DNA of 32,000 nt from an uncultured Erysipelotrichaceae bacterium (GCA_942493105.1 OW818668.1:840001-872000), one strand, 5' to 3'; counted from the stretch's first letter, positions 7,197-30,631 are shown. Notes: generated by a model not told the origin, from the letters alone. A program made the numbers and translations.

Positions 7197-9311
7197 GTGG
7201 CTATCACCGCGATTAAAGGTAGAAAAAGAAAAGACTCTAAAAAAGATAGTCAGGTACATCTTGAGAAAGATCCAAAGGAAAGAGATCTGCTTTCGGAATT
7301 GAATTTAGCCAATCAAGAGATCGCAGAACAACTTATTGAAAAGAAGAAACGTGAAGATGAATTAGCCATAGCCCATATTGAGTTGGTTTTTCAAGAGCAC
7401 GAGAAAGATATGCGTGCTAAAGAATTGGTTGTTGCTAATTCTGAACTCGCCTATCAAACTTCAGAGAAAGCAAAGCGAGCAGAAGAACTGGACATCGCCA
7501 ACAAGGAACTGGAATATCAAACTTCAGAAAAAGCAAATCGAGCATCAGAATTAGTTCTCGCCAACAAGGAACTGGAATATCAAACCTTAGAGAAAGCAGA
7601 TAGAGCTTCGGAACTCGATATTGCGAACAAGGAACTGGAATATCAAACCTCAGAGAAAGCAAATCGAGCGTCTGAGTTAGTCATTGCCAATAAAGAGTTG
7701 GCCTATCAAACTTCAGAAAAAGCGGATCGTGCATCTGAATTATTAGTTGCCAACATAGAGTTAGCCTATCAAACTTCAGAAAAAGAGGAAAGGGCTTCTG
7801 AGTTAAGGATTGCCAACAAAGAGTTAGCGTATCAAACCTCAGAAAAAGCAGATCGAGCCTCAGAACTAAAACTCGCAAAATCAGAACTAGCCTATCAAAC
7901 CACTGAAAAAGCAGATCGGGCTTCCGAGTTAAAAGTCGCCAATACAGAATTGGCCTATCAAACCTCAGAAAAAGCAGATCGAGCTACCGAATTAAAAATA
8001 GCGAATATAGAACTTGCCTATCAAACATCAGAGAAAGCAAACCGTGCTTCTGAATTAAAAATCGCTAATTCAGAATTGGAGTATCAAACATCAGAGAAAG
8101 CAGACCGAGCTTCGGAGTTAAAGATTGCCAACAAAGAATTGGCTTATCAAACCACAGAGAAGGCAGATCGAGCATCTGAATTGAAGATTGCTAATAAAGA
8201 ATTGGCTTATCAAACTGCAGAGAAACAAAAACGTGCAGATGAATTCATAATTATCAACAATACCCTCATTAATCAATATGAAAAGATTGAAAATCTTACC
8301 TATCGAGATCAAACAACAGGATTGTATAATCGCAAGTACTTTTTGAAGATGCTTGAGAATTATGATCATGACGAAAATCTTCCAATCAGTGTCATTGTTG
8401 GCGATGTTAATGGATTGGCACTGATCAATGACTCGTTTGGTAATGCACCGGTTGATGAAATTATGATCAAAGTATCCAAGCTACTTAAGAAATTTGTGCG
8501 TCGTGAAGATGTTATTTTTAGATTAAATCATGGTGGTTTTGCGATCATCCTACCCAGAACAGACTATGATACATCAAGTAAAATAGTCCACGATTTGAAA
8601 CTTCAAGCAAGTCAAGAAAAGGTGGGTCATTTTGATATTTCAATTTCGTGCGGTGTACAAACAAAGGGTTCTCTTAAAACAAAACTAAAAGAAATTATTC
8701 AAAGTGCTTATGAAGAACTTATAACAAATAAGAAAGCCGAAAGTACATTAGTAGAGCATAACACGATCAATTTAATTATGAAAATGTTGTTTGAAAAAAA
8801 CAGTCGCGAAATGTTGCACTCAGCTCGGGTTGGGAAGATTTGCGAAAGGATAGCGCAAAGGATGAATTTGAGTCAGGATGTCACCAATAGCATAAGAATG
8901 GCAGGGATGTTACATGATATAGGAAAAATTGGTATTGATGAAGCAATTCTAAATAAAGTTGGAAAACTAGACGATCAAGAATGGAAAGAAGTAAAGAAAC
9001 ATACTGAGATAGGTTATCGCATTCTAAGCGCCTCTAATGAATTTGCAAATTTTGCTGAAGATGTCCTAAAACATCACGAAAGAATGGATGGTAAGGGTTA
9101 TCCAAAAGGAATAAAAGGTGAAGATATTTCGTTGACTTCAAGAATCATTTCCATCGCTGATACCTATGATGCACTGACTTCGGATCGACCATATCGTTCT
9201 GCACTAAGTGAAGAGGTAGCCATAAAAGAAATTGTAAAATCATCAGGTCATCAATTTGATCCGGCGATTGTTGAGATATTTGTTAATTTGCTTCAGGAAC
9301 AAAGAATTTAG
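7197..9311 (+). CDS. c-di-GMP signalling protein: 15 x 21-aa helical repeats, a degenerate GGDEF domain (NHGGF, with RxxD retained) and an HD-GYP phosphodiesterase domain
   Basis: GTG start after GAGGAA. GGDEF-fold markers are present (TGLYNR, LALINDSFG, RRED-x5-NHGGF). Intact HD-GYP markers are present (HSARV, MLHDIGK, HHERMDGKGYP, DTYDALTSDRPYR). Confidence 0.9.
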   Translation: MAITAIKGRKRKDSKKDSQVHLEKDPKERDLLSELNLANQEIAEQLIEKKKREDELAIAHIELVFQEHEKDMRAKELVVANSELAYQTSEKAKRAEELDIANKELEYQTSEKANRASELVLANKELEYQTLEKADRASELDIANKELEYQTSEKANRASELVIANKELAYQTSEKADRASELLVANIELAYQTSEKEERASELRIANKELAYQTSEKADRASELKLAKSELAYQTTEKADRASELKVANTELAYQTSEKADRATELKIANIELAYQTSEKANRASELKIANSELEYQTSEKADRASELKIANKELAYQTTEKADRASELKIANKELAYQTAEKQKRADEFIIINNTLINQYEKIENLTYRDQTTGLYNRKYFLKMLENYDHDENLPISVIVGDVNGLALINDSFGNAPVDEIMIKVSKLLKKFVRREDVIFRLNHGGFAIILPRTDYDTSSKIVHDLKLQASQEKVGHFDISISCGVQTKGSLKTKLKEIIQSAYEELITNKKAESTLVEHNTINLIMKMLFEKNSREMLHSARVGKICERIAQRMNLSQDVTNSIRMAGMLHDIGKIGIDEAILNKVGKLDDQEWKEVKKHTEIGYRILSASNEFANFAEDVLKHHERMDGKGYPKGIKGEDISLTSRIISIADTYDALTSDRPYRSALSEEVAIKEIVKSSGHQFDPAIVEIFVNLLQEQRI
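7299..8243 (+). repeat. In-frame tandem array of 15 x 63 bp. The first two units are degenerate and the 13 from 7425 are well conserved. It encodes L-K-I-A-N-K-E-L-A-Y-Q-T-S-E-K-A-D-R-A-S-E units.
   Basis: The exact 63-nt period is read directly from the sequence. Units start at 7299+63n and end at 8243. Confidence 0.9.
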
Positions 9312-9751
9312 ATTGTTTGGCAATCTTACGCATAGAAAGATATTTATTTTGAACTGGATTTAGAGCGTAAATTCATTACGAATAAGCCTTAGTAAATGAG
9401 AAAATCAAATAAGTGAAAAAATGTTAAATGAGTGGATTTACTACAGTATTCACATATTCTAGTTAATAAGACTATACTGTGTATAGACCAACAAAGAGGA
9501 TAAGGTCATCAGTTAATGTTTTATTTTATATAAGGCTGTTGAAAATCAAATTATATCTCCTCAATGATATTGCCATGCTATGACTTCGAAATCACACGAA
9601 GTCACCATAAAAAAATAAGATACTGTATTCTCAAAGTATAAAGCAACACCTTGATCTAATAGAACTAATCTTACCTCCTTGATTACCTAGGAGTTTTATT
9701 GTCTTTTCGAATCCTTGTTGTTTGGAATCCCCAAACCGAAAGAGGCTAATA

Positions 9752-10585
9752 ATGATAAAGAAAAGTAATTCACGATGGACGATATTCAGCTTAACGCTAT
9801 CTTTGCTTATTTTGGTATCTACACCATTAACTATACTGGCCGCAACAGTTGAGGCTACAGTGCCGCTAAGTGACGCCTTAAGCTTTGCTGTATTAGCATA
9901 TTCTACAGTGACAAACACCGGAACAACCACAATCAGTGGCACTGCGGGAGGTGAAGTTGGACTGCATCCATCAACATCCATTACGGGAAAAGAAACAATG
10001 ACCATAAGTGGTACATATCATGAAGGTGATGCTGTTGCAGGATTGGCTCAAGCTGCTTTGCTAAATGCTATCACCAATGCTCATGGTCGATCAGCAACTA
10101 GGATAGCAACAGAGCTTGGAAATAAAACACTTCTAGGCGGTGTGTATGATACTGCAAGTGGAACATTTGGCATCACAGGGGACCTAACTCTTGATGGTCA
10201 AAACAATCCAGATACTGTGTTTATTTTTGATATGGCCTCAACATTAGTAACTGCGGCTGGAAGTAAAGTAATTCTAATCAATGGTGCTAATGCATGTAAT
10301 ATTTTCTGGCAAGTGGGAAGTTCAGCTACCTTGGGAACTACTTCTCATATATCTGGCCATATCTTAGCTACAGTATCCATTACTGCAAATGCAGGAGCTG
10401 TTATTGATGGATCATTGTTGGCGAACACTGGGGCAGTCACTTTAAGTGGTAATACGATTACAAATAATCTGTGCCCAACTAATGTGCCTAACACTGGTGT
10501 CCAAGAAGACTTCTTGATTATGGGCAGTTCACTGTTTATGTTGGCAATGGGTGCTTGGTATTTAACAAGAAAAAAGACTGCTTAG
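9752..10585 (+). CDS. Cell-wall-anchored DUF3494 (ice-binding-like beta-solenoid) surface protein with an NVPNTG sorting signal
   Basis: ATG at 9752 lies 6 nt after AGAGG, followed by a signal peptide. DUF3494 blocks are present (FAVLAYSTVTNTG.TTISG, LGGVYDTASG, TLDGQNNPDTVFIF, NIFWQVGSSATLGT, GHILATVSITANAGAVIDGSLLA..GAVTLSGNTI). The C-terminus is NVPNTG, a hydrophobic helix, then RKKTA. Confidence 0.85.
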   Translation: MIKKSNSRWTIFSLTLSLLILVSTPLTILAATVEATVPLSDALSFAVLAYSTVTNTGTTTISGTAGGEVGLHPSTSITGKETMTISGTYHEGDAVAGLAQAALLNAITNAHGRSATRIATELGNKTLLGGVYDTASGTFGITGDLTLDGQNNPDTVFIFDMASTLVTAAGSKVILINGANACNIFWQVGSSATLGTTSHISGHILATVSITANAGAVIDGSLLANTGAVTLSGNTITNNLCPTNVPNTGVQEDFLIMGSSLFMLAMGAWYLTRKKTA

Positions 10586-10654
10586 TACAAAACCTTGATG
10601 ATCAACAAAGTTGACATCAACATATTGGATTAAGGTAATTAGCTAAATTATGAT

Positions 10655-10687
10655 AAAAGATGATAATATTGTTTATCATCTTTTTTT
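10655..10687 (+). terminator. Rho-independent terminator (overlaps Fur-box-like GATAAT hexamers)
   Basis: GATGATAA / loop TATTGT / TTATCATC with A/T extension and a 7-T run. Confidence 0.8.
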
Positions 10688-10759
10688 GACTTACATCAAC
10701 ATGGGCACATGCTTTGATTTAGATCGCTAACATTGATGTAATGTTAGTGAGGTGATTTT

Positions 10760-11584
10760 ATGGAACTATTCTTGCCTGGAATGATTATGGGATTTAGAGA
10801 AGGACTAGAAGCTTTTGTAATCGTAGTCATTATTCTTCAATATCTTAATCATACGCAAAAACAAGCGTATAAGAAACATGTATTTAATGGAGTTACAGCA
10901 GGGGTTATCGCATCTTTGTTGATTGGTTTGGCACTTTATCTTTTGTCTCGCGAACTAAATCAGACAGATGAGTTTACTAAGATTTGGGAAAGCATTTCGA
11001 GTATGTTGGCTTTGATTCTCATTACCTTTTTTATTGTTTGGATGATCCAACATGGCCGTAATATGGTATCTGAAGTTCAAGATCAAGTTCAGCAGAATCT
11101 ATCTAAGTCAGGATTATTTAGTTTAGCATTCATGATGGTAGTACGAGAAGGTACTGAAATTGCAATCTTTACGTTTGCCGGACAATACACTTTATTTTCT
11201 ATTGGAGTAGGGATAACTTTGTCTTTGATCCTTGCGATTTTGATTTATAAAGCGCTGATTAAAGTCAATTTGAAATTTCTATTTAACATTACTTTGGCTT
11301 ATTTGATTTTACAGGCAGGTTTCTTATTGGGTTATGCTGTACATGAAGGTTTATCAGCATTAAAGTCTCTTGAACTTATTCCTACCAATAATGTCTTGCT
11401 GACTAAAGCATTTGATTTATCAGGGACAGTTTTCGATCATAAAGAAGGTGTATTAGGCATAGGAATGTATGTTGGATTGGGTTGGTATTCAAAACCCGAA
11501 TGGATCCAATTCATACTGCAATATGTGTACACATTTGGCCTATTTGCGTATTGGTCGCATGATCTGAAAAGAATCAAACAGTAG
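10760..11584 (+). CDS. FTR1-family high-affinity iron permease (EfeU-like)
   Basis: Two REGxE motifs (FREGLEAFV and VREGTEIAIF) in a 7-TM protein. RBS is GTGAGGTG. Confidence 0.85.
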   Translation: MELFLPGMIMGFREGLEAFVIVVIILQYLNHTQKQAYKKHVFNGVTAGVIASLLIGLALYLLSRELNQTDEFTKIWESISSMLALILITFFIVWMIQHGRNMVSEVQDQVQQNLSKSGLFSLAFMMVVREGTEIAIFTFAGQYTLFSIGVGITLSLILAILIYKALIKVNLKFLFNITLAYLILQAGFLLGYAVHEGLSALKSLELIPTNNVLLTKAFDLSGTVFDHKEGVLGIGMYVGLGWYSKPEWIQFILQYVYTFGLFAYWSHDLKRIKQ

Positions 11585-16749: not shown

Positions 16750-16770
16750 ACGTTTCTCCTATTGATAGAT

Positions 16771-16822
16771 GAAGTTTAGTTTAAACAACAACAAACTTCA
16801 AGAATAATGCTTCGAATTCGAA
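16771..16822 (-). promoter_or_regulatory. Candidate promoter and operators of the mhq-like operon
   Basis: Minus-strand TTGAAG (16801-16796), a 17-nt spacer, then TAAACT (16778-16773). The inverted repeat GAAGTTT (16771-16777) / AAACTTC (16793-16799) overlaps both hexamers. The perfect palindrome TTCGAATTCGAA sits at 16811-16822. Confidence 0.4.
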
Positions 16823-16936
16823 ATAATAGCTATGGTTGTAAAGAATTAGAGATCAAGTCGTGATAAATGTGCAATTTTCAATATTTAAAACCAAATACTT
16901 CATTATTTCAACTAAATCGAGTTTGTAATAAACAGA

Positions 16937-16993
16937 AATGTAATATAATGTTGACTAATGTCATTATAAATGTTATAAAATGATTGATAATGT
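16937..16993 (+). promoter_or_regulatory. Promoter of the PTS island embedded in six ~10-bp-phased AATGT/AATGA boxes
   Basis: TTGACT (16951-16956), a 17-nt spacer, then TATAAA (16974-16979). AATG(T/A) starts at 16937, 16947, 16957, 16969, 16979 and 16989. Confidence 0.5.
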
Positions 16994-17108
16994 TATATTA
17001 AGTTAGAAAATTTACACTAAAAGTTATAATTTGATGGAGATTTATAAATCTTGTTAAAAACAGAACACAAAACAACAAGATTGAAATAAAATAGAAAGGA
17101 GGTGAACT

Positions 17109-17843
17109 ATGAAAAAAATAATGATTGGAGAAATGAGTTGGATAGAAGCAAATGAAAGAATAAGAGAGTCTAGAGCAGTCATATTGCCTTTGGGATCTAC
17201 TGAACAACATGGTCCACACATGAGTTTAGCTACTGACACTACAGTTGCATCATATGTGTCAAAGGTTTTAGGTGAATTGACAGACTGTGTTGTTTTACCG
17301 ACCTTGCCTTTTGGGCAAGTTTGGTCTGCAAAAGATTTTCCGGGTACCATGTCGCTTAAAGAAAGAACTTTTATAGAGGTTGTTAAAGACGTTGTTATAA
17401 GTTTAGAAAAAGGTGGGGCACGAAACGTTATTTTGTTTTCGGGACATCTTGGAAACAACCTCCCCAGTAAGACAGCAGCAAGAGAATTGCTTGATGAATT
17501 TGGATATAAAAATGTATTCCATATTAGTTATACTGACATAAAAAAACACAGTTTAGGGATCATGGATACAGACCCATGGAATGGAAAAACCTTTCATGCT
17601 GCTGAACTCGAAACTTCAATCTTACTCCACATTGCGCCAGATGGAGTCGATATGTCAAAAGCGGTCCGTGAGTATCCGTTGGTTCCAGGAGATATAGAAA
17701 TAAGACCAATTCCTTGGAAGGATTTCAGTTCAACTGGCGTTTTCGGAGATGCAATTCCGTCAACCGCTGAAAAGGGAAAAAGATTCTTGGATAATTGGAT
17801 AAATGATATGGTTGAGATTATTGAGAAGAATGTTAAGTACTAA
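17109..17843 (+). CDS. Creatininase-family amidohydrolase
   Basis: Family signature LPLGSTEQHGPHMSLATD, later GHLGN and HAAELETS blocks. Strong RBS AAAGGAGGTG. Confidence 0.85.
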   Translation: MKKIMIGEMSWIEANERIRESRAVILPLGSTEQHGPHMSLATDTTVASYVSKVLGELTDCVVLPTLPFGQVWSAKDFPGTMSLKERTFIEVVKDVVISLEKGGARNVILFSGHLGNNLPSKTAARELLDEFGYKNVFHISYTDIKKHSLGIMDTDPWNGKTFHAAELETSILLHIAPDGVDMSKAVREYPLVPGDIEIRPIPWKDFSSTGVFGDAIPSTAEKGKRFLDNWINDMVEIIEKNVKY

Positions 17844-17874
17844 ATTGATCATATAGAGATCGGAAAGGTGGATT

Positions 17875-19254
17875 ATGGAATTCATTGCTTCAACATTTAA
17901 GATTATTGCTGGTCAGATCGAGTTGGTAATGGGAATTGTTGTTTTAATCGGTTTGATTATTCAAGGGAAAAAGCCATATGAAATTGTTAAAGGTGTTATT
18001 AAGGCTGTTGTAGGTGTTTTAATTTTAAAAGCAGGTTCAACACTCTTACAGGCACCTTATAAACCTGTAATGGAGATGATCAAAGCACAATTCAATATCA
18101 CAGGTATAATTACAGAAAACTACACTGGCATGGCTGCTATTAATACAGCCTTGTCTCCAGCAGTTTTGAGTATAATCCCTCAGGTTATGGTGTTTGGCTT
18201 CTTGGTCAATTTACTGTTGGCTCGATTTACCAATTTGAAATATGTATTCTTAACTGCCCATACTATGTTAGCTTTCTCAACTCTAACAGTATGGATGATG
18301 ACTTGGTTCTTTAAGGCAGAAGGATTACAATTATTACTTGCTAGTAGTCTCGTGTGTGGTGTTTATTGGACAATAATGCCAGCATGGGTTCATAAGTACT
18401 CTCGTCCTTTTGCTGGAGATAGTTTCACATTAGGTCACATTTCAGGATTTGCAGCAATTATAAGTTCACTCATTGGCCGAGTTCTTGGTAAATATAACAA
18501 GAAAGAACCAAAATTCTTTGATGAATCTGAAGAAGCAGAAAATAAATATTCTGGTTTATCAGTATTATTTAACGATAGTACAGTAGTAACAGCGATTTTG
18601 ATGACAATCGTATTGGGTGGAGCTACTCTGCTTGTAAAAAGAGAGTTGGTAGTTGCTGCTGCCGGTGCGATGAATCCTTATGTTTATATGTTTGAATTAG
18701 GCTTTAGCTTTACAGTTGGTATTGTAGTCTTGCTTACAGGTGTGCGTATGATGATTGCTGAATTGGTTCCAGCATTTAAAGGAATCTCTGATAAATTGAT
18801 TCCTAATGCTGTCCCAGCATTAGATATGCCAGTGTTTTATCCTTTAGCTCCATTCGCAGCTATTTTGGGTTTTATTGGAACTTTCCTTGGCGAATTCATT
18901 GGATTCTTTGTTCTTCTCGGAACAGGATCTGCCATTGTTATGATTCCTGGCATCATAGCTACCTTCTTTGATGGTGGTATCGCTGGTGTCTTTGGTTATA
19001 AATATGGTGGTAAAAAGGCAGCATTTATTTCAGGTCTTGTTGTTGGGTTGGTCCAAATTCTTGGCGGTGTATTCTTTACCAAATTATCAGGTATGTCAAC
19101 ACTTGGTGCAACCTATGGAAATACAGACTTTGGTTCCTTGTGGGCAGTGTTAGCCTTCATTATGAGTTTCTTAGGAAACGTATGGGTATTTATAGCATTA
19201 ATCGCAGTTCTGTTTGTAGTTGCAAATCATTTCTTAAAACCGAAAACAGTTTAA
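17875..19254 (+). CDS. PTS EIIC component, ascorbate (UlaA/SgaT) family
   Basis: 459-aa polytopic protein. The N-terminus and layout resemble SgaT/UlaA (..GIVVLIGLIIQGKK...IKAVVGVLILKAGSTLL..), and it sits in a cluster with EIIA and EIIB genes. Confidence 0.8.
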   Translation: MEFIASTFKIIAGQIELVMGIVVLIGLIIQGKKPYEIVKGVIKAVVGVLILKAGSTLLQAPYKPVMEMIKAQFNITGIITENYTGMAAINTALSPAVLSIIPQVMVFGFLVNLLLARFTNLKYVFLTAHTMLAFSTLTVWMMTWFFKAEGLQLLLASSLVCGVYWTIMPAWVHKYSRPFAGDSFTLGHISGFAAIISSLIGRVLGKYNKKEPKFFDESEEAENKYSGLSVLFNDSTVVTAILMTIVLGGATLLVKRELVVAAAGAMNPYVYMFELGFSFTVGIVVLLTGVRMMIAELVPAFKGISDKLIPNAVPALDMPVFYPLAPFAAILGFIGTFLGEFIGFFVLLGTGSAIVMIPGIIATFFDGGIAGVFGYKYGGKKAAFISGLVVGLVQILGGVFFTKLSGMSTLGATYGNTDFGSLWAVLAFIMSFLGNVWVFIALIAVLFVVANHFLKPKTV

Positions 19255-19335
19255 TTAGTAACTCATTGTGTGAATGAGTTTGATTATAAAATCAGACTCA
19301 TTCACATATTTATGAATGTTAGAAAGGAAATTACC

Positions 19336-20136
19336 ATGTGGTTTGATGAAGTATTTAAAACGAGAAAGCCAGTTATAGGTATGTGTCATTTTCAAGCTCT
19401 ACCTGGAGATCCGAATTATGACGAAGCAAAAGGAATGTCTTATGTAGTTGAAAAAGCTCGTCACGATTTGTTGGCACTCCAAAATGGAGGAGTTGACGCA
19501 ATTCTTTTCTCAAATGAATTTAGCTTACCTTACTTGACTGATGTTAAACCGGTAACAATTGCTGCAATGGCAAGGATTATTGGAGAATTAAAAAAAGAGA
19601 TAAAGGTGCCTTACGGAGTTGATGTGCTTTGGGATCCGTGTAAAAGCTTTGATTTGGCAGTTTCAGTTGATGCAAGCTTCGTTAGAGAGATTTTCACAGG
19701 AGTGTACGCTAGTGATTTTGGATTATGGAATACGAATTATGGTGAAACGATCAGACACAAAAATAGTATACACGCAAAACATGTTAGAGCACTATTTAAC
19801 ATTGTTCCAGAAGCGGCTAAATATCTTGCGGATCGAGATATCGAATCCGTTGCGAAGTCGACTGTATTTAACAATAACCCAGATGCATTGTGCGTTTCAG
19901 GCTTGACTGCAGGAGTTGCCACAGATACCGCAGTACTGACAAGAGTAAAAAATGCAGTACCCAACACAATGGTTTTCGTTAATACTGGAGTTAATTTAGG
20001 TAATGTTCATGAACAATTATCCATTGCTGATGGTTGTGTAGTTGGAACATTCTTTAAAAGAGATGGTCAGTTTTATAACGAAGTCGATGAAGCAAGAGTT
20101 AAATCTCTTATGGACAAAGTCAAGCAATTAAGATAA
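19336..20136 (+). CDS. BtpA/SgcQ-family TIM-barrel protein, paralog 1
   Basis: ATG at 19336 follows AAAGGA. KPVIGMCHFQALPGDP N-terminal signature and NTGV near the C-terminus. The listed GTG at 19270 lies inside an intergenic hairpin. Confidence 0.8.
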   Translation: MWFDEVFKTRKPVIGMCHFQALPGDPNYDEAKGMSYVVEKARHDLLALQNGGVDAILFSNEFSLPYLTDVKPVTIAAMARIIGELKKEIKVPYGVDVLWDPCKSFDLAVSVDASFVREIFTGVYASDFGLWNTNYGETIRHKNSIHAKHVRALFNIVPEAAKYLADRDIESVAKSTVFNNNPDALCVSGLTAGVATDTAVLTRVKNAVPNTMVFVNTGVNLGNVHEQLSIADGCVVGTFFKRDGQFYNEVDEARVKSLMDKVKQLR

Positions 20137-20172
20137 AGTTTATTGGAAAAGTGGATAATAAAAAAGGTGGTC

Positions 20173-20982
20173 ATGATGATAGCTGCTGAACGTAGAGAGT
20201 TAATAGTCCAAAAAATAAAAGCGAGTAAATTCGTATCAATTCAAGAGTTATCTAAGGAATTTAGTGTAACTGAGATGACGATTCGAAGAGACCTAGATTT
20301 TTTGACTCGCCAAGGCTTAATAAAGCGATCTCATGGAGGGGCTCTTATCAATGATAAGGTTGGTTTAGAATCAGAGTTCGATACAAGAAAAATTCAGCTA
20401 AGTGAAATAAAGGAAGTTATTGGTAAGAAAGCTGCAAGTTTAATTTCAGCAGGCGATTGTATTGCTATTGATTGTGGTACTACAGCGTACGAAGTGTCTC
20501 GATTTATATCAAATATCCCGGATTTAAAAGTGATTACTGCTTCAATCCCAGTTATTGCTGAACTGTTACAGTATCCGCAGGTAAATGTTATTTGTACTGG
20601 TGGAGAGCTTTCTATTAAAGATAAATCACTTGTTGGAAGCACGGCAATTCGTACTATTCAAGACTATATCCTGGACAAGGTTTTTATTGGAGTCGCTGGA
20701 ATCTCATTTGATTTTGGTTTCACCATGTTTAACATGAATGACACACTTGTTAAAAGAGCTTTTATTGATCGCGCTAGAGAAGTGATTGTTGTGGCGGACT
20801 CATCAAAGATCGGGGTTACTCGACATGCATATTTTTGTGAGATTGAAAAAGCAAATAAAATTATTACAGATAGTGGAATCAGCAACGAAGATTATCAGGA
20901 GTTCATAAATATGGGAATAGAGGTAATTATTGCTGATAAAGATAAAGTGAACTTTGGAGAAAATGATAACAAAAATCTTTAA
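20173..20982 (+). CDS. DeoR-family transcriptional regulator
   Basis: ATG follows AAGGTGG. N-terminal HTH (ERRELIVQKIKASKFVSIQELSKEFSVTEMTIRRDLDFLTRQGLIKRSHGGA) and a C-terminal DeoR sugar-phosphate sensor domain. Confidence 0.85.
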   Translation: MMIAAERRELIVQKIKASKFVSIQELSKEFSVTEMTIRRDLDFLTRQGLIKRSHGGALINDKVGLESEFDTRKIQLSEIKEVIGKKAASLISAGDCIAIDCGTTAYEVSRFISNIPDLKVITASIPVIAELLQYPQVNVICTGGELSIKDKSLVGSTAIRTIQDYILDKVFIGVAGISFDFGFTMFNMNDTLVKRAFIDRAREVIVVADSSKIGVTRHAYFCEIEKANKIITDSGISNEDYQEFINMGIEVIIADKDKVNFGENDNKNL

Positions 20983-21421
20983 TGAAGTTGAAGTTATTGA
21001 TGAGAAATTCGAAAATTGGATCCAGGTAGTTGACTTTGTTTGTGCAATTTTCACTAAAAGAAAATGGTCAACTAGTGATTACTTTGAACATATTAAAAAA
21101 GATATGATTGAAACGAAATCATATATGGTACTAGCACCCGGTGTCGTTTTATTGCACAGTTCACCAAAGAATGGTGCTCTTGATGATGCGTTCCATTTTA
21201 TAAAACTTAAACATTCAGTTAAGTTTGATCATGATTATAATGACCCAGTTCATTCAGTGATTACGTTTTCAGCAACAGATACTAAGAAGCATATTGAGTC
21301 GATTCAGAGACTGGCATATTTGTTGATTGATGAGGAATTTATGAATGAAATTAGACAGAATGTTAGTCGAATTGAGTTGATTAATATTTTATGTAAATAT
21401 GAAAATAAATCATTACAGTGA
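20963..21421 (+). CDS. PTS EIIA component (EIIA-2: mannitol/fructose/ascorbate type)
   Basis: About 150 aa with the EIIA-2 layout and a candidate phospho-His in APGVVLLHSSP. It overlaps the DeoR 3' end by 20 nt. TTG at 20954 is an alternative start. Confidence 0.7.
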   Translation: MITKIFNEVEVIDEKFENWIQVVDFVCAIFTKRKWSTSDYFEHIKKDMIETKSYMVLAPGVVLLHSSPKNGALDDAFHFIKLKHSVKFDHDYNDPVHSVITFSATDTKKHIESIQRLAYLLIDEEFMNEIRQNVSRIELINILCKYENKSLQ

Positions 21422-21439
21422 ACCGATGGAGGTTTCTAA

Positions 21440-21751
21440 ATGCTTAAAGTAAACACAGTATGTGTAAATGGAATGGGATCAAGTTTGATTCTTAGGATGA
21501 CTGTTGAAAAAGCCCTTAAAGAGTTAAACATAAATGCTCAAGTAACAGCAATAGATTTTAGTGGCTTTCAAGGGATGAAACCACATTTATGTATCACAAC
21601 TCCAGAGCTTGCAAAAAGTATTAAAGCTTCTGAAACCATGATTGTTTTAACAATAATCAATTTTACGGATGTTCAAGGAATAAAGCAGAAGATAGCTGAT
21701 GCTATTAATTTGTATCCGTTTCTTAAAGTTGAAGTTGATAAGAATAAGTAA
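21440..21751 (+). CDS. PTS EIIB component (ascorbate/lactose-type, Cys phosphocarrier)
   Basis: 103 aa. N-terminal KVNTVCVNGMGSSLILRM active-site Cys loop. RBS is GGAGG. Confidence 0.8.
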   Translation: MLKVNTVCVNGMGSSLILRMTVEKALKELNINAQVTAIDFSGFQGMKPHLCITTPELAKSIKASETMIVLTIINFTDVQGIKQKIADAINLYPFLKVEVDKNK

Positions 21752-21789
21752 GGGTACGTTCATATCCATATTTCAAAGGAGCGCAAAAT

Positions 21790-22596
21790 ATGTGGATTAA
21801 AAATACATTTGGAGTAATAAAACCAGTAATTGGAATGGTTCATATTGATGCATTACCCGGTACTGTTTTGTATAACCAAACTGGCGGTTTGAATAAAATA
21901 ATTGAGCATGCAAAACAAGATTATGTATCACTAGTAGAAGGTGGAATTAATGCGGTTATATTCTGTAATGAGAATGATAAACCTTATTCAAAAGAAGTTG
22001 ATCCTCATATTGTCTCCGCTATGACATTGGTTATTCGTGAAGTAGTAGGCAACAAAGTAATCATTCCTTTTGGAGTAGATATTCAATGGGATGCAAAAGC
22101 GTCATTAGCTGTTGCGAGTATGACAAATGCTTCCTTCATAAGAGGGATTGTTTCTGGTACCTATTGTGGAGATTTAGGATTCTTTACTCCAGATACTGAG
22201 GATATTCTCAAGTATAGGCACCAAATTAATGCTGACCATGTGAAGATTTTGACCAATATAAATCCAGAGTTTTCTGAATCACTTGATCGAAGATCGCTTG
22301 AATTAAGAATAATGACAATTTCTAAAAGTACTTTAGTTGATGGAATATGTGTATCAGGGATTATGGCTGGTGTTGCAACATCGTATGAAATGTTAAAGGA
22401 TGTTAAAAAACTGAATGGAGATTTCCCGATTATTGCAAATACAGGGATTAATTTTGATAACATAAATCAAGCTTTAGAGTATGCGGACGCTTGTGTAGTA
22501 GCCACATGTTTAAAAGTGAATGGCAACTCTAGGGGTCGGATTGATGTGAATAATGTTAAGAAGCTTATGGCAAAATTAAAAAAGGAGACAAAATGA
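21790..22596 (+). CDS. BtpA/SgcQ-family TIM-barrel protein, paralog 2
   Basis: KPVIGMVHIDALPGT signature. It is collinear with paralog 1 but strongly diverged. RBS is AAAGGAG. Confidence 0.8.
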   Translation: MWIKNTFGVIKPVIGMVHIDALPGTVLYNQTGGLNKIIEHAKQDYVSLVEGGINAVIFCNENDKPYSKEVDPHIVSAMTLVIREVVGNKVIIPFGVDIQWDAKASLAVASMTNASFIRGIVSGTYCGDLGFFTPDTEDILKYRHQINADHVKILTNINPEFSESLDRRSLELRIMTISKSTLVDGICVSGIMAGVATSYEMLKDVKKLNGDFPIIANTGINFDNINQALEYADACVVATCLKVNGNSRGRIDVNNVKKLMAKLKKETK

Positions 22597-23549
22597 AGTA
22601 TATACAAACTGTTTTAGGACAAATTAGACCTGAAGAATTAGGTGTTTCAAATTACCATGATCATTTGATTACCATTGGTGGTGGAGAAGAGAAAGCGGAT
22701 CGTGATTTAAGGCTTGATCGTGTTGATTATGCAATTGATGCGATGAAGAAATTTAAAGCGATTGGCGGCGATATGATGGTAGATATGAATCCAATCGATT
22801 GCGGCCGTCAAATTGAAATGCTTAAAGAAATATCTGAAAAATCCGGAATAAAGATTATTTCATGTACAGGTTTTCAAAGGTCTATTTATTACGATCCAGA
22901 GCATTGGGTCAATAAGTATTCAATAGAGGAAATTGCTAAGCTTATAGCTGAAGAAATAACGGTTGGTATTGAAATCAACAATTATGCTGGTCCAATCATT
23001 AGAAGAAGTACTGCAAAAGCTGGAGTAATAAAAATAGCGACTCATTACAACTGCATTCGTCCTATGGAATTACGCGTAATTGAAGCTGCTTGTTTGGCTT
23101 CGAAAATGACGGGAGCCCCTCTTTCATCACACACAGAAAGAGGAACAATGGGTCTTGAAGTGATAGAGCTAGTCAAGAAATTTGGAGTAGATCCTAGACG
23201 CTTGACTTTAGGCCATGTTGATCGAAACCCTGATCTTGAATATCACAAAAAAATGGCTGCCCAAGGTGTCACATTAGGTTATGATGGACCATCAAGAATC
23301 AAATATTGGCCCGACAGTGTATTAATCGAATTGATAAAAGGTATGTGTGATGCAGGATATTCAAAGAATATCATGTTAGGGGGAGATAACGGAAGAGCCT
23401 CAATGTGGCCTCAGTATGGTGGAGGTCATGGTCATAATTATATTTATGAGAAATTCATCCCAAGGTTGATAGAGGCGGGTGTTTCCCAAGATGATATAGA
23501 TAATATGTTGATTTATAATCCTAGAAGACAATTTTCTATTGAAAAGTAG
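22593..23549 (+). CDS. Phosphotriesterase-homology (COG1735, amidohydrolase-superfamily) protein, probable phospho-sugar lactonase
   Basis: Metal-ligand pattern is HDH (NYHDHL), KAGVIKIA, SSHT, LGHVD, GGD. It aligns by eye with E. coli Php along its whole length. ATGA start/stop overlap with the upstream BtpA gene. Confidence 0.85.
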   Translation: MKYIQTVLGQIRPEELGVSNYHDHLITIGGGEEKADRDLRLDRVDYAIDAMKKFKAIGGDMMVDMNPIDCGRQIEMLKEISEKSGIKIISCTGFQRSIYYDPEHWVNKYSIEEIAKLIAEEITVGIEINNYAGPIIRRSTAKAGVIKIATHYNCIRPMELRVIEAACLASKMTGAPLSSHTERGTMGLEVIELVKKFGVDPRRLTLGHVDRNPDLEYHKKMAAQGVTLGYDGPSRIKYWPDSVLIELIKGMCDAGYSKNIMLGGDNGRASMWPQYGGGHGHNYIYEKFIPRLIEAGVSQDDIDNMLIYNPRRQFSIEK

Positions 23550-23732
23550 CTGAGTACGCAAATCAATACTAACTCAGCAAACAAAGATATTATATATTTT
23601 CTTGAACTGAAAAGAGTTCAAAAAATCATAACGCATGACTATTCATCAATTCTACATAAGCTAACCGGCAAAATAGAAATTTGCTGATGTGGAAAACTTT
23701 TTATGCATCATTAATGAAGTGTTGATTTTAGT

Positions 23733-23769
23733 AAAAATAGACATTCAATATATTTGAATGTCTATTTTT
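23733..23769. terminator. Strong bidirectional rho-independent terminator
   Basis: AAAAATAGACATTCAA / TATAT / TTGAATGTCTATTTTT. A 16-bp perfect stem with A- and T-tracts, lying between the convergent PTE-like and mgtC-like genes. Confidence 0.85.
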
Positions 23770-23805
23770 AAATGATATATAAGTGCTATTAGAACAATTT
23801 CTATT

Positions 23806-29449: not shown

Positions 29450-30631
29450 GTGACGAAGCTTATAACTCAACCTTATGTGGTCATGGCCAAACCGGTTGGA
29501 CCACTATGTAATTTAGAGTGCAGTTATTGTTACTACTTAAATACTGAAGGCTCAAAATCAAAACATCCTCAGTTACAGATGTCAGATGATGTGCTAGAAG
29601 AATTCATTAAACAAATGATACAAACCAACCCAGGACCTGTTGTTTCTTTTACTTGGCATGGAGGAGAACCAACTCTTGCTGGATTGGACTTTTATCGTAA
29701 AGCAGTAGCACTTCAAAAAGAATACTTACCTAAGAACTGGACCTGTTGGAACAACCTTCAAACCAATGGAATCAATCTTGATGATGAGTGGTGTTCCTTT
29801 CTAGCTAAAGAACATTTCGATGTTGGGATCAGTATTGATGGAACCCAAACACTTCATGATCATTTTAGAAAAGATAAAAAAGGTCAAGGATCTTATCATC
29901 GTGTCGTTGAGTCAATTCATCGATTAAAAAAGGCGGGTATATTACCTGACCTTTTGTGCACAGTTAACTCGCTAACCACGAAAGATCCTTTGGGGGTCTA
30001 TCGAACCTTAAGAGAACTAAATACAGGATGGATCCAATTTATCCCTATTCTTATTAAAAATAGCGATGGAACTCTGGCTAGCGATTCGGTAGATGCCAAA
30101 GCTTATGGAGAATTTCTTAAAGTGATTTTCGAAGAATGGATCCATCATGATTTAGGTGTGGTAGATGTTCAGATCTTTGCGGAAACAGCCATAATGTGGG
30201 CTGGTGGATCTGCCAGTGTATGTTGGCTCGCACCGACTTGTGGCCGTGTTATGGTAGTTGAACGTAATGGGAACGTCTATTCTTGCGATCATTATGTATC
30301 ATCACAATATTACCTTGGAAATATTGAAAATTCATCTTTAGCTGACTTGGTTGATTCTCCATTTCAGAAACAATTCGGTCAAAATAAACGAGAACACATT
30401 GCACAAAAATGTTTATCATGTCCATATCTTAAAGTCTGTAATGGAGGATGTCCTAAAGATAGGATCGATCACGGAGATCTAAAAGGTTTAAATATTTTAT
30501 GTGAAGGACTATATGCCTTTCATGAGCATGCTGAAAAACCTTTGAAAGAACTGATGAGACTTAGAATGCAAGGTTTATCCCCGCAAGAAATTATGAAACA
30601 ACTAAGACTCAAGTTTCCTAAAAGCACTTAA
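29450..30631 (+). CDS. Radical SAM/SPASM maturase, anaerobic sulfatase-maturating-enzyme-like (AtsB/ChuR/YdeM type)
   Basis: CNLECSYCYY (CX3CX2C), GGEPTLAG, and the C-terminal SPASM motif CLSCPYLKVCNGGC (CX2CX5CX3C). The GTG start lies 1 nt after the DLH stop (ATG at 29483 is an alternative), so it is co-transcribed with DLH. Confidence 0.8.
   Translation: MTKLITQPYVVMAKPVGPLCNLECSYCYYLNTEGSKSKHPQLQMSDDVLEEFIKQMIQTNPGPVVSFTWHGGEPTLAGLDFYRKAVALQKEYLPKNWTCWNNLQTNGINLDDEWCSFLAKEHFDVGISIDGTQTLHDHFRKDKKGQGSYHRVVESIHRLKKAGILPDLLCTVNSLTTKDPLGVYRTLRELNTGWIQFIPILIKNSDGTLASDSVDAKAYGEFLKVIFEEWIHHDLGVVDVQIFAETAIMWAGGSASVCWLAPTCGRVMVVERNGNVYSCDHYVSSQYYLGNIENSSLADLVDSPFQKQFGQNKREHIAQKCLSCPYLKVCNGGCPKDRIDHGDLKGLNILCEGLYAFHEHAEKPLKELMRLRMQGLSPQEIMKQLRLKFPKST

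Follow-up and report, generated by a model that had tools for sequence, protein, structure and literature searches.

Which compound does a bacterium take up through a phosphotransferase system (PTS) transporter of the ascorbate type when the Ula enzymes that process ascorbate are missing from the genes around it? This question is raised by a stretch of 32,000 nucleotides from an uncultured Erysipelotrichaceae bacterium (OW818668.1:840001-872000; hereafter called the window, from whose first letter all positions are counted), in which eight co-directional open reading frames (ORFs) follow each other head to tail between 17109 and 23549 of the + strand. In our reading, which we consider probable in its general outline, these genes form a self-contained, horizontally mobile, and DeoR-controlled operon for the PTS-dependent catabolism of a sugar lactone or sugar-acid derivative. 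An early description made from the sequence by eye (the first-pass annotation) had pictured a lactone, lactam, or sugar acid as the substrate, and we retain this as a suggestion.

The operon starts with the gene of a creatininase-family binuclear metallohydrolase (17109..17843, 244 amino acids (aa); PF02633, E 2.9e-61) and that of a PTS enzyme IIC (EIIC) of the ascorbate (UlaA/SgaT) type (17875..19254, 459 aa; PF03611 or EIIC-GAT, E 1.1e-87). They are followed by BtpA-1, an ortholog of SgcQ (19336..20136, 266 aa; PF03437, E 1.4e-92), a DeoR-family regulator (20173..20982, 269 aa; HTH_DeoR plus DeoRC, E 3.3e-46), an EIIA of the EIIA_2 type (20963..21421, 152 aa; PF00359, E 5.8e-20), and an EIIB (21440..21751, 103 aa; PF02302 or PTS_IIB, E 5.3e-11). 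The last two genes encode the cluster-specific paralog BtpA-2 (21790..22596, 268 aa; PF03437, E 5.8e-66) and a binuclear-metal hydrolase of the COG1735/phosphotriesterase (PTE) family, which is predicted to be a phospho-sugar lactonase (22593..23549, 318 aa; PF02126, E 1.3e-53). All eight genes are on the + strand. Their families were assigned by Pfam and NCBIfam profile searches, which gave a strong Pfam match for each protein with NCBIfam in agreement. Both the family names and the order of packed, co-directional genes given in the first-pass annotation were thereby borne out.

In gene order and with corrected starts, the intergenic distances are 31, 81, 36, -20, 18, 38, and -4 nt. The two overlaps pointed out earlier are indeed present: the EIIA gene starts with an ATG at 20963 and overlaps by 20 nt with the DeoR gene, whose stop lies at 20982, and BtpA-2 shares an ATGA overlap with the PTE gene (22593-22596). 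The corrections concern BtpA-1, which starts at ATG 19336 (266 aa, matching all homologs) and not at GTG 19270, leaving a spacer of 81 nt behind the EIIC gene, and DeoR, which starts at ATG 20173 after an AAGGTGG ribosome-binding site and, at 269 aa, matches the length of the gene call in locus L034, a close relative. In that locus an EIIA gene of the same 152 aa is called as well. No convincing internal terminator was found within the eight genes, and with its tight packing, two overlaps, and strong terminal hairpin, the segment 17109-23549 is a self-contained operon.

In the scheme that we propose, the UlaA-type EIIC would import the substrate together with EIIB and EIIA and phosphorylate it at a terminal hydroxyl, after which the PTE homolog would hydrolyze the ring of the phospho-lactone, yielding a phospho-aldonate or keto-aldonate. 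A second hydrolysis, of either an amide/N-acyl group or a beta-dicarbonyl C-C bond, would fall to the creatininase homolog. The two BtpA barrels would then isomerize, epimerize, decarboxylate, or aldol-cleave the phosphorylated open-chain product to give a central metabolite, and a phosphorylated intermediate would probably lift DeoR repression. What anchors the scheme is the gene content, which is conserved as a unit, together with intact catalytic residues and phosphate-binding features in the encoded proteins; from the chemistry of the families we infer in which order the steps run, what the substrate is, and which reactions the creatininase homolog and the BtpA proteins catalyze.

The predicted lactonase is tied to enzymes of known activity. 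Its nearest NCBIfam model is the phospho-furanose lactonase NF045706 (275.7 bits), and its best sequence matches in the PDB are 3MSR/3OVG (Mycoplasma synoviae MS53_0025; E 2e-67, 39% identity), followed by 3PNZ (Listeria Lmo2620; E 1.8e-51, 33% identity), with E. coli Php as a more distant relative. The relationship to characterized phospho-lactonases that had been claimed for this COG1735 member is thus real. Aligned to 3MSR and 3PNZ, the protein keeps all six binuclear-metal ligands (H22, H24, K147, H180, H208, and D265), which it has in common with the mycoplasma enzymes MS53_0025/MAG_6390 (3MSR, 3OVG), its closest solved sequence relatives. The distal phosphate residues of MS53_0025 (K217, K244, Y245, R275, and Y278; these numbers match the PDB sequences exactly) align to R211, K237, Y238, R268, and M271 in the window. 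Three out of five positions are identical (K237, Y238, and R268), with one conservative K-to-R exchange (R211) and one loss, Y to M (M271). MS53_0025 reportedly hydrolyzes D-xylono- and L-arabinono-1,4-lactone-5-phosphate. Lmo2620 is reported to act on D-lyxono- and L-ribono-1,4-lactone-5-phosphate (Xiang et al., 2012), and Bh0225 is reported to act on these as well.

The creatininase homolog (17109-17843) was aligned to 1J2T. The positions of E34, H36, D45, H120, H178, and E183 of Pseudomonas putida creatininase, the binuclear metal ligands plus the catalytic His, are all conserved in it. At the creatinine-binding positions Y121, E122, W154, and W174 (compare the mutant entries 3A6E-3A6L), it has L, G, T, and K, respectively. 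The protein scores 150 bits against the creatininase model TIGR04448 (cut-off 235) and also stays below the MftE, IolN, and ArfB cut-offs (75 bits for the IolN model). Given its intact metal ligands, altered creatinine contacts, and sub-cut-off scores, it is thus best seen as a metallohydrolase with a substrate other than creatinine. Over 223 aligned residues, it is 41% identical to the creatininase homolog next to Listeria Lmo2620 (BLASTP).

The transporter is of the UlaA/SgaT family and its set is complete, consisting of the PF03611 EIIC and separate PTS_IIB and EIIA_2 proteins. Against NF006919, the model of the ascorbate transporter subunit IIC, the EIIC reaches 346 bits, which is below the cut-off of 380, and it remains far below the cut-offs of the other ascorbate models. 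No tblastn match at E<1e-5 was found between the EIIC and the E. coli SgcC/sgc locus. As read from the translation, EIIB has its Cys8 within a VCxNGxGSS motif. For the DeoR protein, presumed to be the repressor of the operon, the nearest NCBIfam model is AgaR (205 bits, below its cut-off), and the UlaR model NF010034 gives 95 bits at a cut-off of 244.

How far these eight families belong together can be judged from their recurrence. A profile of the BtpA-2 clade was run against one genome per species, yielding 22 loci; the same gene families surround the BtpA-2 match in 18 of them and in the separately found locus L001. The eight-family module thus recurs in about 20 species of gut and environmental Firmicutes, including Hungatella hathewayi, Clostridium lamae, Pseudoflavonifractor, Oscillospiraceae, Erysipelotrichaceae, and one metagenome-assembled genome (MAG) of Faecalibacterium. 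To call the cluster an orphan, as had been done, is consequently an overstatement, the more so as a core of PTS, PTE, and creatininase genes also surrounds Lmo2620. Protein identities between the window and the surveyed loci amount to 73-81% for PTE, 60-79% for BtpA-1, and 50-64% for BtpA-2. The gene order is shuffled among the loci (BtpA-1 follows either EIIC or PTE, and the position of EIIA is variable), and two blocks are constant, namely creatininase-EIIC and DeoR-(EIIA)-EIIB-BtpA-2-PTE. The co-occurrence that had been put forward as a check was found in this BtpA-2-seeded survey, where clustering of the neighboring ORFs revealed HPr and Enzyme I (EI; both recognized by motifs) as the only two extra recurrent families. 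Among the clustered neighbors, no dehydrogenase, kinase, dehydratase, or known aldolase recurs with the module. The four enzymes therefore appear to be the whole dedicated pathway.

The module also changes its surroundings. Locus L034 (1-20801), whose proteins are about 90% identical to those of the window, carries all eight genes in unchanged order among entirely different neighbors, and in L001 (6233-16652) an IS110 element borders the module and an IS66 insertion interrupts the PTE gene. Because of these different flanks and the insertion elements around the L001 copy, we consider that the module moves, and presumably functions, as a unit; it appears to be transferred horizontally with all eight genes. 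A tblastn search of plasmids with BtpA-2 returned generic BtpA genes only (at most 41% identity, mostly from Rhizobium), and by this search the cluster is not carried on plasmids. One contig (L007, JAWZDV010000022.1) is labeled as a Bacteroides thetaiotaomicron MAG but has the Firmicute cluster, with several flanking families as in the Hungatella hathewayi locus L013; the Bacteroides label is probably a binning error.

Several known systems resemble this operon in part. In Listeria monocytogenes, the locus of Lmo2620 (LMOf2365_2620, 3PNZ) consists, in this order, of a PRD/EIIA regulator, EIIA, EIIB, EIIC (PF03611), PTE, a creatininase homolog, a KDGP aldolase (PF07071), and SIS_2. Its Paenibacillus counterpart has the Listeria set without the aldolase and adds its own HPr and EI, which some window-type clusters carry as well. 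An UlaA-type PTS, a PTE, and a creatininase homolog are thus common to the window and the Listeria/Paenibacillus clusters, at 33-41% protein identity. The Listeria cluster differs in its PRD/EIIA-domain regulator, SIS_2, and KDGP aldolase, instead of which the window has DeoR and two BtpA barrels. The simplest reading of this comparison would be a non-orthologous displacement of the downstream phospho-sugar steps, with two BtpA proteins standing for SIS with or without the aldolase, both of them enzymes of phospho-sugars. Within the Listeria cluster, the lactonase is reportedly the sole protein with in-vitro activity (Xiang and coworkers, 2012). The searchable literature holds no experimental assignment of the window cluster or of an orthologous one, and the cluster is a variant within the PTS-linked sugar-acid/lactone operons, of which the Lmo2620-type relative is already known. 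A contig of the Enterococcus avium type (L027, 1-9993) has two adjoining UlaA-type PTS units. One is followed by a transketolase and the second by a Lmo2620-like PTE only, without creatininase, SIS, or BtpA genes, making the latter a minimal variant of PTS plus lactonase.

The E. coli ula system (ulaABCDEF, ulaG, and ulaR) resembles the window cluster in its PTS family, in encoding EIIC, EIIB, and EIIA by separate genes, in having a DeoR-family regulator, and in opening a lactone as its first step, which can be likened to the predicted PTE step. It differs in that the window EIIC and regulator fall below the ascorbate-specific equivalog cut-offs. Searches with Pfam and NCBIfam found no member of the UlaG (metallo-beta-lactamase fold), UlaD (KGPDC), UlaE, or UlaF families among the eight proteins, and the flanking genes are unrelated. 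The first-pass annotation was therefore right in stating that the Ula enzymes are absent, but its wording that none of their folds is encoded was too strong, since the BtpA models are phosphate-binding (beta/alpha)8 barrels and hence of the broad UlaD/UlaE fold class. The resemblance ends at this class, as no family-level homology of BtpA to UlaD or UlaE was detected. In mycoplasmas, a PTE-family gene adjoins the ascorbate PTS genes and has been proposed to supply the UlaG step, the one gap in a Ula pathway that is complete apart from it. This occupation of the UlaG slot lends support, as a pattern, to the suggestion that the PTE homolog takes the place of UlaG. The mycoplasma loci lack only UlaG, whereas UlaD, UlaE, and UlaF are also absent from the window cluster. 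The sgc cluster of E. coli K-12 (sgcXBCQAER), finally, has a PTS, a DeoR-type regulator, and SgcQ in common with the window. It includes the RPE-like SgcE and the M42 peptidase SgcX, neither of which is present in the window cluster, and has no PTE, creatininase homolog, or second BtpA, all three of which the window cluster contains.

This leaves the BtpA/SgcQ proteins, a family with more than 6,500 homologs at E<=0.001 (in a word-limited search) that occurs in E. coli K-12, cyanobacteria, and many gut Firmicutes. The earlier remark that it has no demonstrated function still holds, as no biochemical activity is reported in the searchable literature, including a 2026 PNAS study of E. coli in which sgcABCEQX are treated as functionally unassigned and sgc mutants had no growth defect on 190 carbon sources. 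BtpA-1 and BtpA-2 are 37% identical and have different distributions; judged by their sequences they are ancient paralogs, and the duplication that had been called the most unusual aspect of the operon is not a local one. Both match TIGR00259 over their full length (324 and 229 bits, cut-off 153) and miss the photosystem I biogenesis BtpA model NF045918 (146 and 168 bits, cut-off 400). BtpA-1 belongs to a very conserved group; it shares 66% identity with E. coli SgcQ (b4303) over 265 aa and about 70% with proteins of Paenibacillus, Brevibacillus, Cohnella, spirochaetes, and Chloroflexi. The BtpA-2 clade is small. About 65 sequence clusters have identities of at least 49%, whereas those outside the clade reach 43% at most, and in every related locus that includes the region the PTE gene lies immediately 3' of BtpA-2.

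Both paralogs keep the polar residues that are invariant throughout the family, about 20 in all, many of which are located at the C-terminal ends of barrel strands (in BtpA-1 numbering K11, H18, D44, N60, E61, Y66, W99, D100, R117, D127, E159, R167, D183, S188, N216-T217-G218, D232, and K241). Gly-rich loops follow strands 6 to 8 in the two proteins, and clade-specific positions set them apart (D63-K64 in BtpA-2 versus S63-L64 in SgcQ, and G119 versus E118). A sequence search of the PDB with BtpA-1 found no relative. The AF2 models, with pLDDT values of 94.7 (BtpA-1) and 93.4 (BtpA-2), are both (beta/alpha)8 barrels, and Foldseek places them nearest to phosphate-binding barrels in the PDB, namely PcrB/GGGPS, RPE, KDPG/KDPGal aldolases, PRAI, ThiE, and PdxJ. 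The best superpositions are those on KDPG and KDPGal aldolases (TM up to 0.79 on the target). Such model-based matches favor an enzyme with a phosphorylated substrate. An assignment of the reaction from them was set aside, as they comprise only generic phosphate-binding barrels at TM 0.5-0.6.

The neighborhoods of SgcQ-type proteins offer further hints. In three loci the gene has both an FGGY sugar kinase gene and an M42 peptidase gene beside it, and one SgcQ homolog from Actinomycetota is followed by an RPE-like gene. Other homologs accompany ABC transporters and soluble FGGY kinases where no PTS is nearby. An SgcX-like M42 metallopeptidase adjoins the SgcQ-type BtpA in L024 (9974-16000), L030 (7463-11006), L031 (6343-9813), and L033 (E. 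coli sgc), together with an FGGY kinase or a PTS. This recurrent neighbor suggests a conserved partnership of SgcQ with an amidohydrolase, parallel to that of BtpA and the creatininase homolog in the window. In an Anaerolineales MAG (L022, 9046-12779), genes for a DeoR protein and an SgcQ-type BtpA are followed by two ORFs (328 and 312 aa) that, when inspected by eye, look like sugar-phosphate isomerases of the eIF-2B/MtnA family, a further phospho-sugar setting for BtpA. A 364-aa protein from a 1697-bp metagenome contig (P0184) was considered as a BtpA-PTE fusion, which would have spoken for functional coupling, and rejected as a deletion chimera; residues 1-190 of BtpA-2 are joined in it to the second half of PTE, and the HxH metal motif is missing.

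We would, tentatively and as a possibility that still has the odds against it, go one step further than the general scheme. BtpA/SgcQ may be an unrecognized family of enzymes (e.g., decarboxylases, epimerases, or aldolases) whose substrates are phosphorylated (keto)aldonates or pentulose phosphates. The operon would then encode a complete four-enzyme, non-Ula pathway leading from a PTS-delivered phospho-lactone to an intermediate of the pentose-phosphate pathway or glycolysis, in which BtpA-2 takes the product of PTE and SgcQ performs a widely shared funnel reaction.

Three other explanations deserve consideration. The operon might encode a non-orthologous pathway for L-ascorbate or an analogue (erythorbate) that ends in D-xylulose-5-phosphate, with PTE acting for UlaG, one BtpA for the UlaD decarboxylase, the other for the UlaE 3-epimerase, and the creatininase homolog for UlaF. 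The count matches, with four enzymes for four Ula enzymes, ascorbate EIIC models are the nearest to the EIIC (346 bits), and the mycoplasma PTE-family gene beside an ascorbate PTS, proposed for the missing UlaG, provides a precedent. RPE is among the top structural neighbors of the BtpA models, E. coli SgcQ adjoins the RPE-like SgcE, the Actinomycetota SgcQ homolog precedes an RPE-like gene, and the pairs of FGGY kinase and SgcQ resemble LyxK plus SgbH of the yiaK-S operon. We nonetheless think this pathway unlikely. The EIIC and, by a wide margin, the regulator remain under the ascorbate and UlaR cut-offs (346 versus 380 and 95 versus 244 bits); the phosphate site of PTE fits enzymes for 5-phospho-1,4-pentonolactones, in which the phosphate is one carbon nearer to the ring than in ascorbate-6-phosphate; and KGPDC/OMPDC structures are not in the top 50 Foldseek matches of the BtpA models. 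To our knowledge, moreover, the characterized members of the creatininase family are all hydrolases and none is an epimerase. Alternatively, the substrate might contain nitrogen. It could be an N-acylated amino-sugar acid or lactone (e.g., GlcNAc1A from oxidized chitin), a lactam, or a glycated compound, which the creatininase homolog would deacylate or whose amide it would open, while the BtpA pair would be the equivalent of the Listeria SIS plus KDGP aldolase. Judging by the NCBIfam names, characterized creatininase-family enzymes mostly cleave amides (in creatinine, formamides, and peptides), and Listeria joins PTE and creatininase with SIS and a KDGP aldolase of the DgaF type, the aldolase of the D-glucosaminate pathway. 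The SgcQ-type BtpA is recurrently found beside the metallo-amidohydrolase SgcX, and the E. coli sgc operon is induced in conditions with nitrogen-containing carbon sources (2026 E. coli study). We regard such a substrate as doubtful, however, as everything in its favor is context. The creatininase family also includes a C-C hydrolase of a cyclitol diketone (IolN), the cluster has no deaminase, pyridoxal phosphate-dependent enzyme, or acyl-handling gene, homology between BtpA and KDGP aldolase was not detected (by hhalign with a single-sequence target), and the sgc mutants of the 2026 study were without a phenotype on 190 carbon sources.

It is also conceivable that the BtpA proteins are no enzymes at all but assist the membrane PTS permease as assembly factors or chaperones, so that the pathway would consist of the lactonase and the creatininase homolog only. 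Names point this way, since cyanobacterial BtpA is called a photosystem I biogenesis factor (NF045918) and homologs are labeled 'membrane complex biogenesis' proteins by JGI, and the 2026 study credits SgcQ with 'PTS chaperone-like features'. We find this highly improbable, considering the about 20 invariant polar residues, the Gly-rich loops typical of phosphate binding, and the 66-70% identity among E. coli, Firmicute, and spirochaete proteins, a level typically seen in enzymes whose small-molecule substrate is fixed. SgcQ homologs are, furthermore, found with ABC transporters or FGGY kinases where no PTS is nearby, and every cluster retains both paralogs, which differ at specificity positions.

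Critically speaking, a number of points also weigh against the PTS-dependent lactone or sugar-acid pathway that we prefer. Co-transcription of the eight genes is deduced from their spacing alone. The PTE homolog is far below the NF045706 cut-off (276 versus 630 bits) and only 33-39% identical to the characterized enzymes, and may therefore have another specificity. For these relatives, the in-vitro substrates in the 2012 and 2014 work of Xiang and Korczynska reportedly came from small libraries and may not be the physiological ones. The survey was seeded with BtpA-2, which means that BtpA-2 implies the rest of the cluster and not the converse. With respect to the BtpA models, the structural matches, at TM 0.5-0.6 and E values of about 1e-7 to 1e-9, are of a generic kind that assigns no reaction, and hhalign of the BtpA profile against the single Listeria PF07071 KDGP aldolase sequence, which is a weak test, indicated no homology (probability 0.1%).

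The main value of the operon lies in the tractable entry that it offers into the biochemistry of BtpA/SgcQ, with two distinct paralogs in a compact set of four enzymes. As the lactonase relatives have phospho-pentonolactone substrates, the candidates for the BtpA proteins are narrowed to a short list of phospho-aldonates, and the Listeria comparison yields the hypothesis that two BtpA barrels do the work of SIS plus KDGP aldolase. Cultured hosts of the cluster exist (Hungatella hathewayi WAL-18680 and Clostridium lamae NGMCC 1.200840), and assignment of the pathway would tell which nutrient niche is served by this module, a common one among gut Clostridia.

Regulation may be sought in the control region between the divergent genes (16750..17108), for which the reported 359 bp and AT-richness are accurate; it has 24% GC versus 36% for both the cluster and the whole window. 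An AGGAGG ribosome-binding site precedes 17109. The region contains a tandem direct repeat of 32 nt (72% identity, 16936-16999), a candidate operator for DeoR. Promoter-like hexamers are not more frequent in it than in shuffled sequence, and a scan of the whole window for cre-like sites gave matches no commoner than chance, with zero in the control region. An Rfam scan of the window revealed neither riboswitches nor any other RNA family. A long stem-loop can be formed on the + strand within the 81 nt that separate EIIC from BtpA-1 (19259..19321; free energy -29 kcal/mol, z -6.2), which may be a processing element, a stability element, or an attenuator. Its outer stem is conserved in L034 and its inner stem has compensatory changes there, and it is absent from the more distant clusters L001 and L009.

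At the other end, a hairpin between convergent genes (about 23732..23770; free energy -20.4 kcal/mol, z -6.05) is preceded by an A-run and followed by a U-run, and 0 of 200 shuffles were equally stable. It is probably a bidirectional intrinsic terminator, as had been described, although the stem has 17 bp and not 16; a simple terminator scan of the window failed to pick it up. The genes on both flanks are unrelated to the cluster. Upstream, MarR, glyoxalase, and esterase genes run divergently on the opposite strand, and downstream lie a convergent MgtC gene on the opposite strand and an ABC importer. Elsewhere in the window, and likewise unrelated, are a signaling protein with GGDEF and HD-GYP domains (7197-9311), an Ice_binding-like protein beside an FTR1 iron permease (9722-11584), and a radical SAM/SPASM protein whose gene lies 3' of that of a dienelactone hydrolase (29450-30631).

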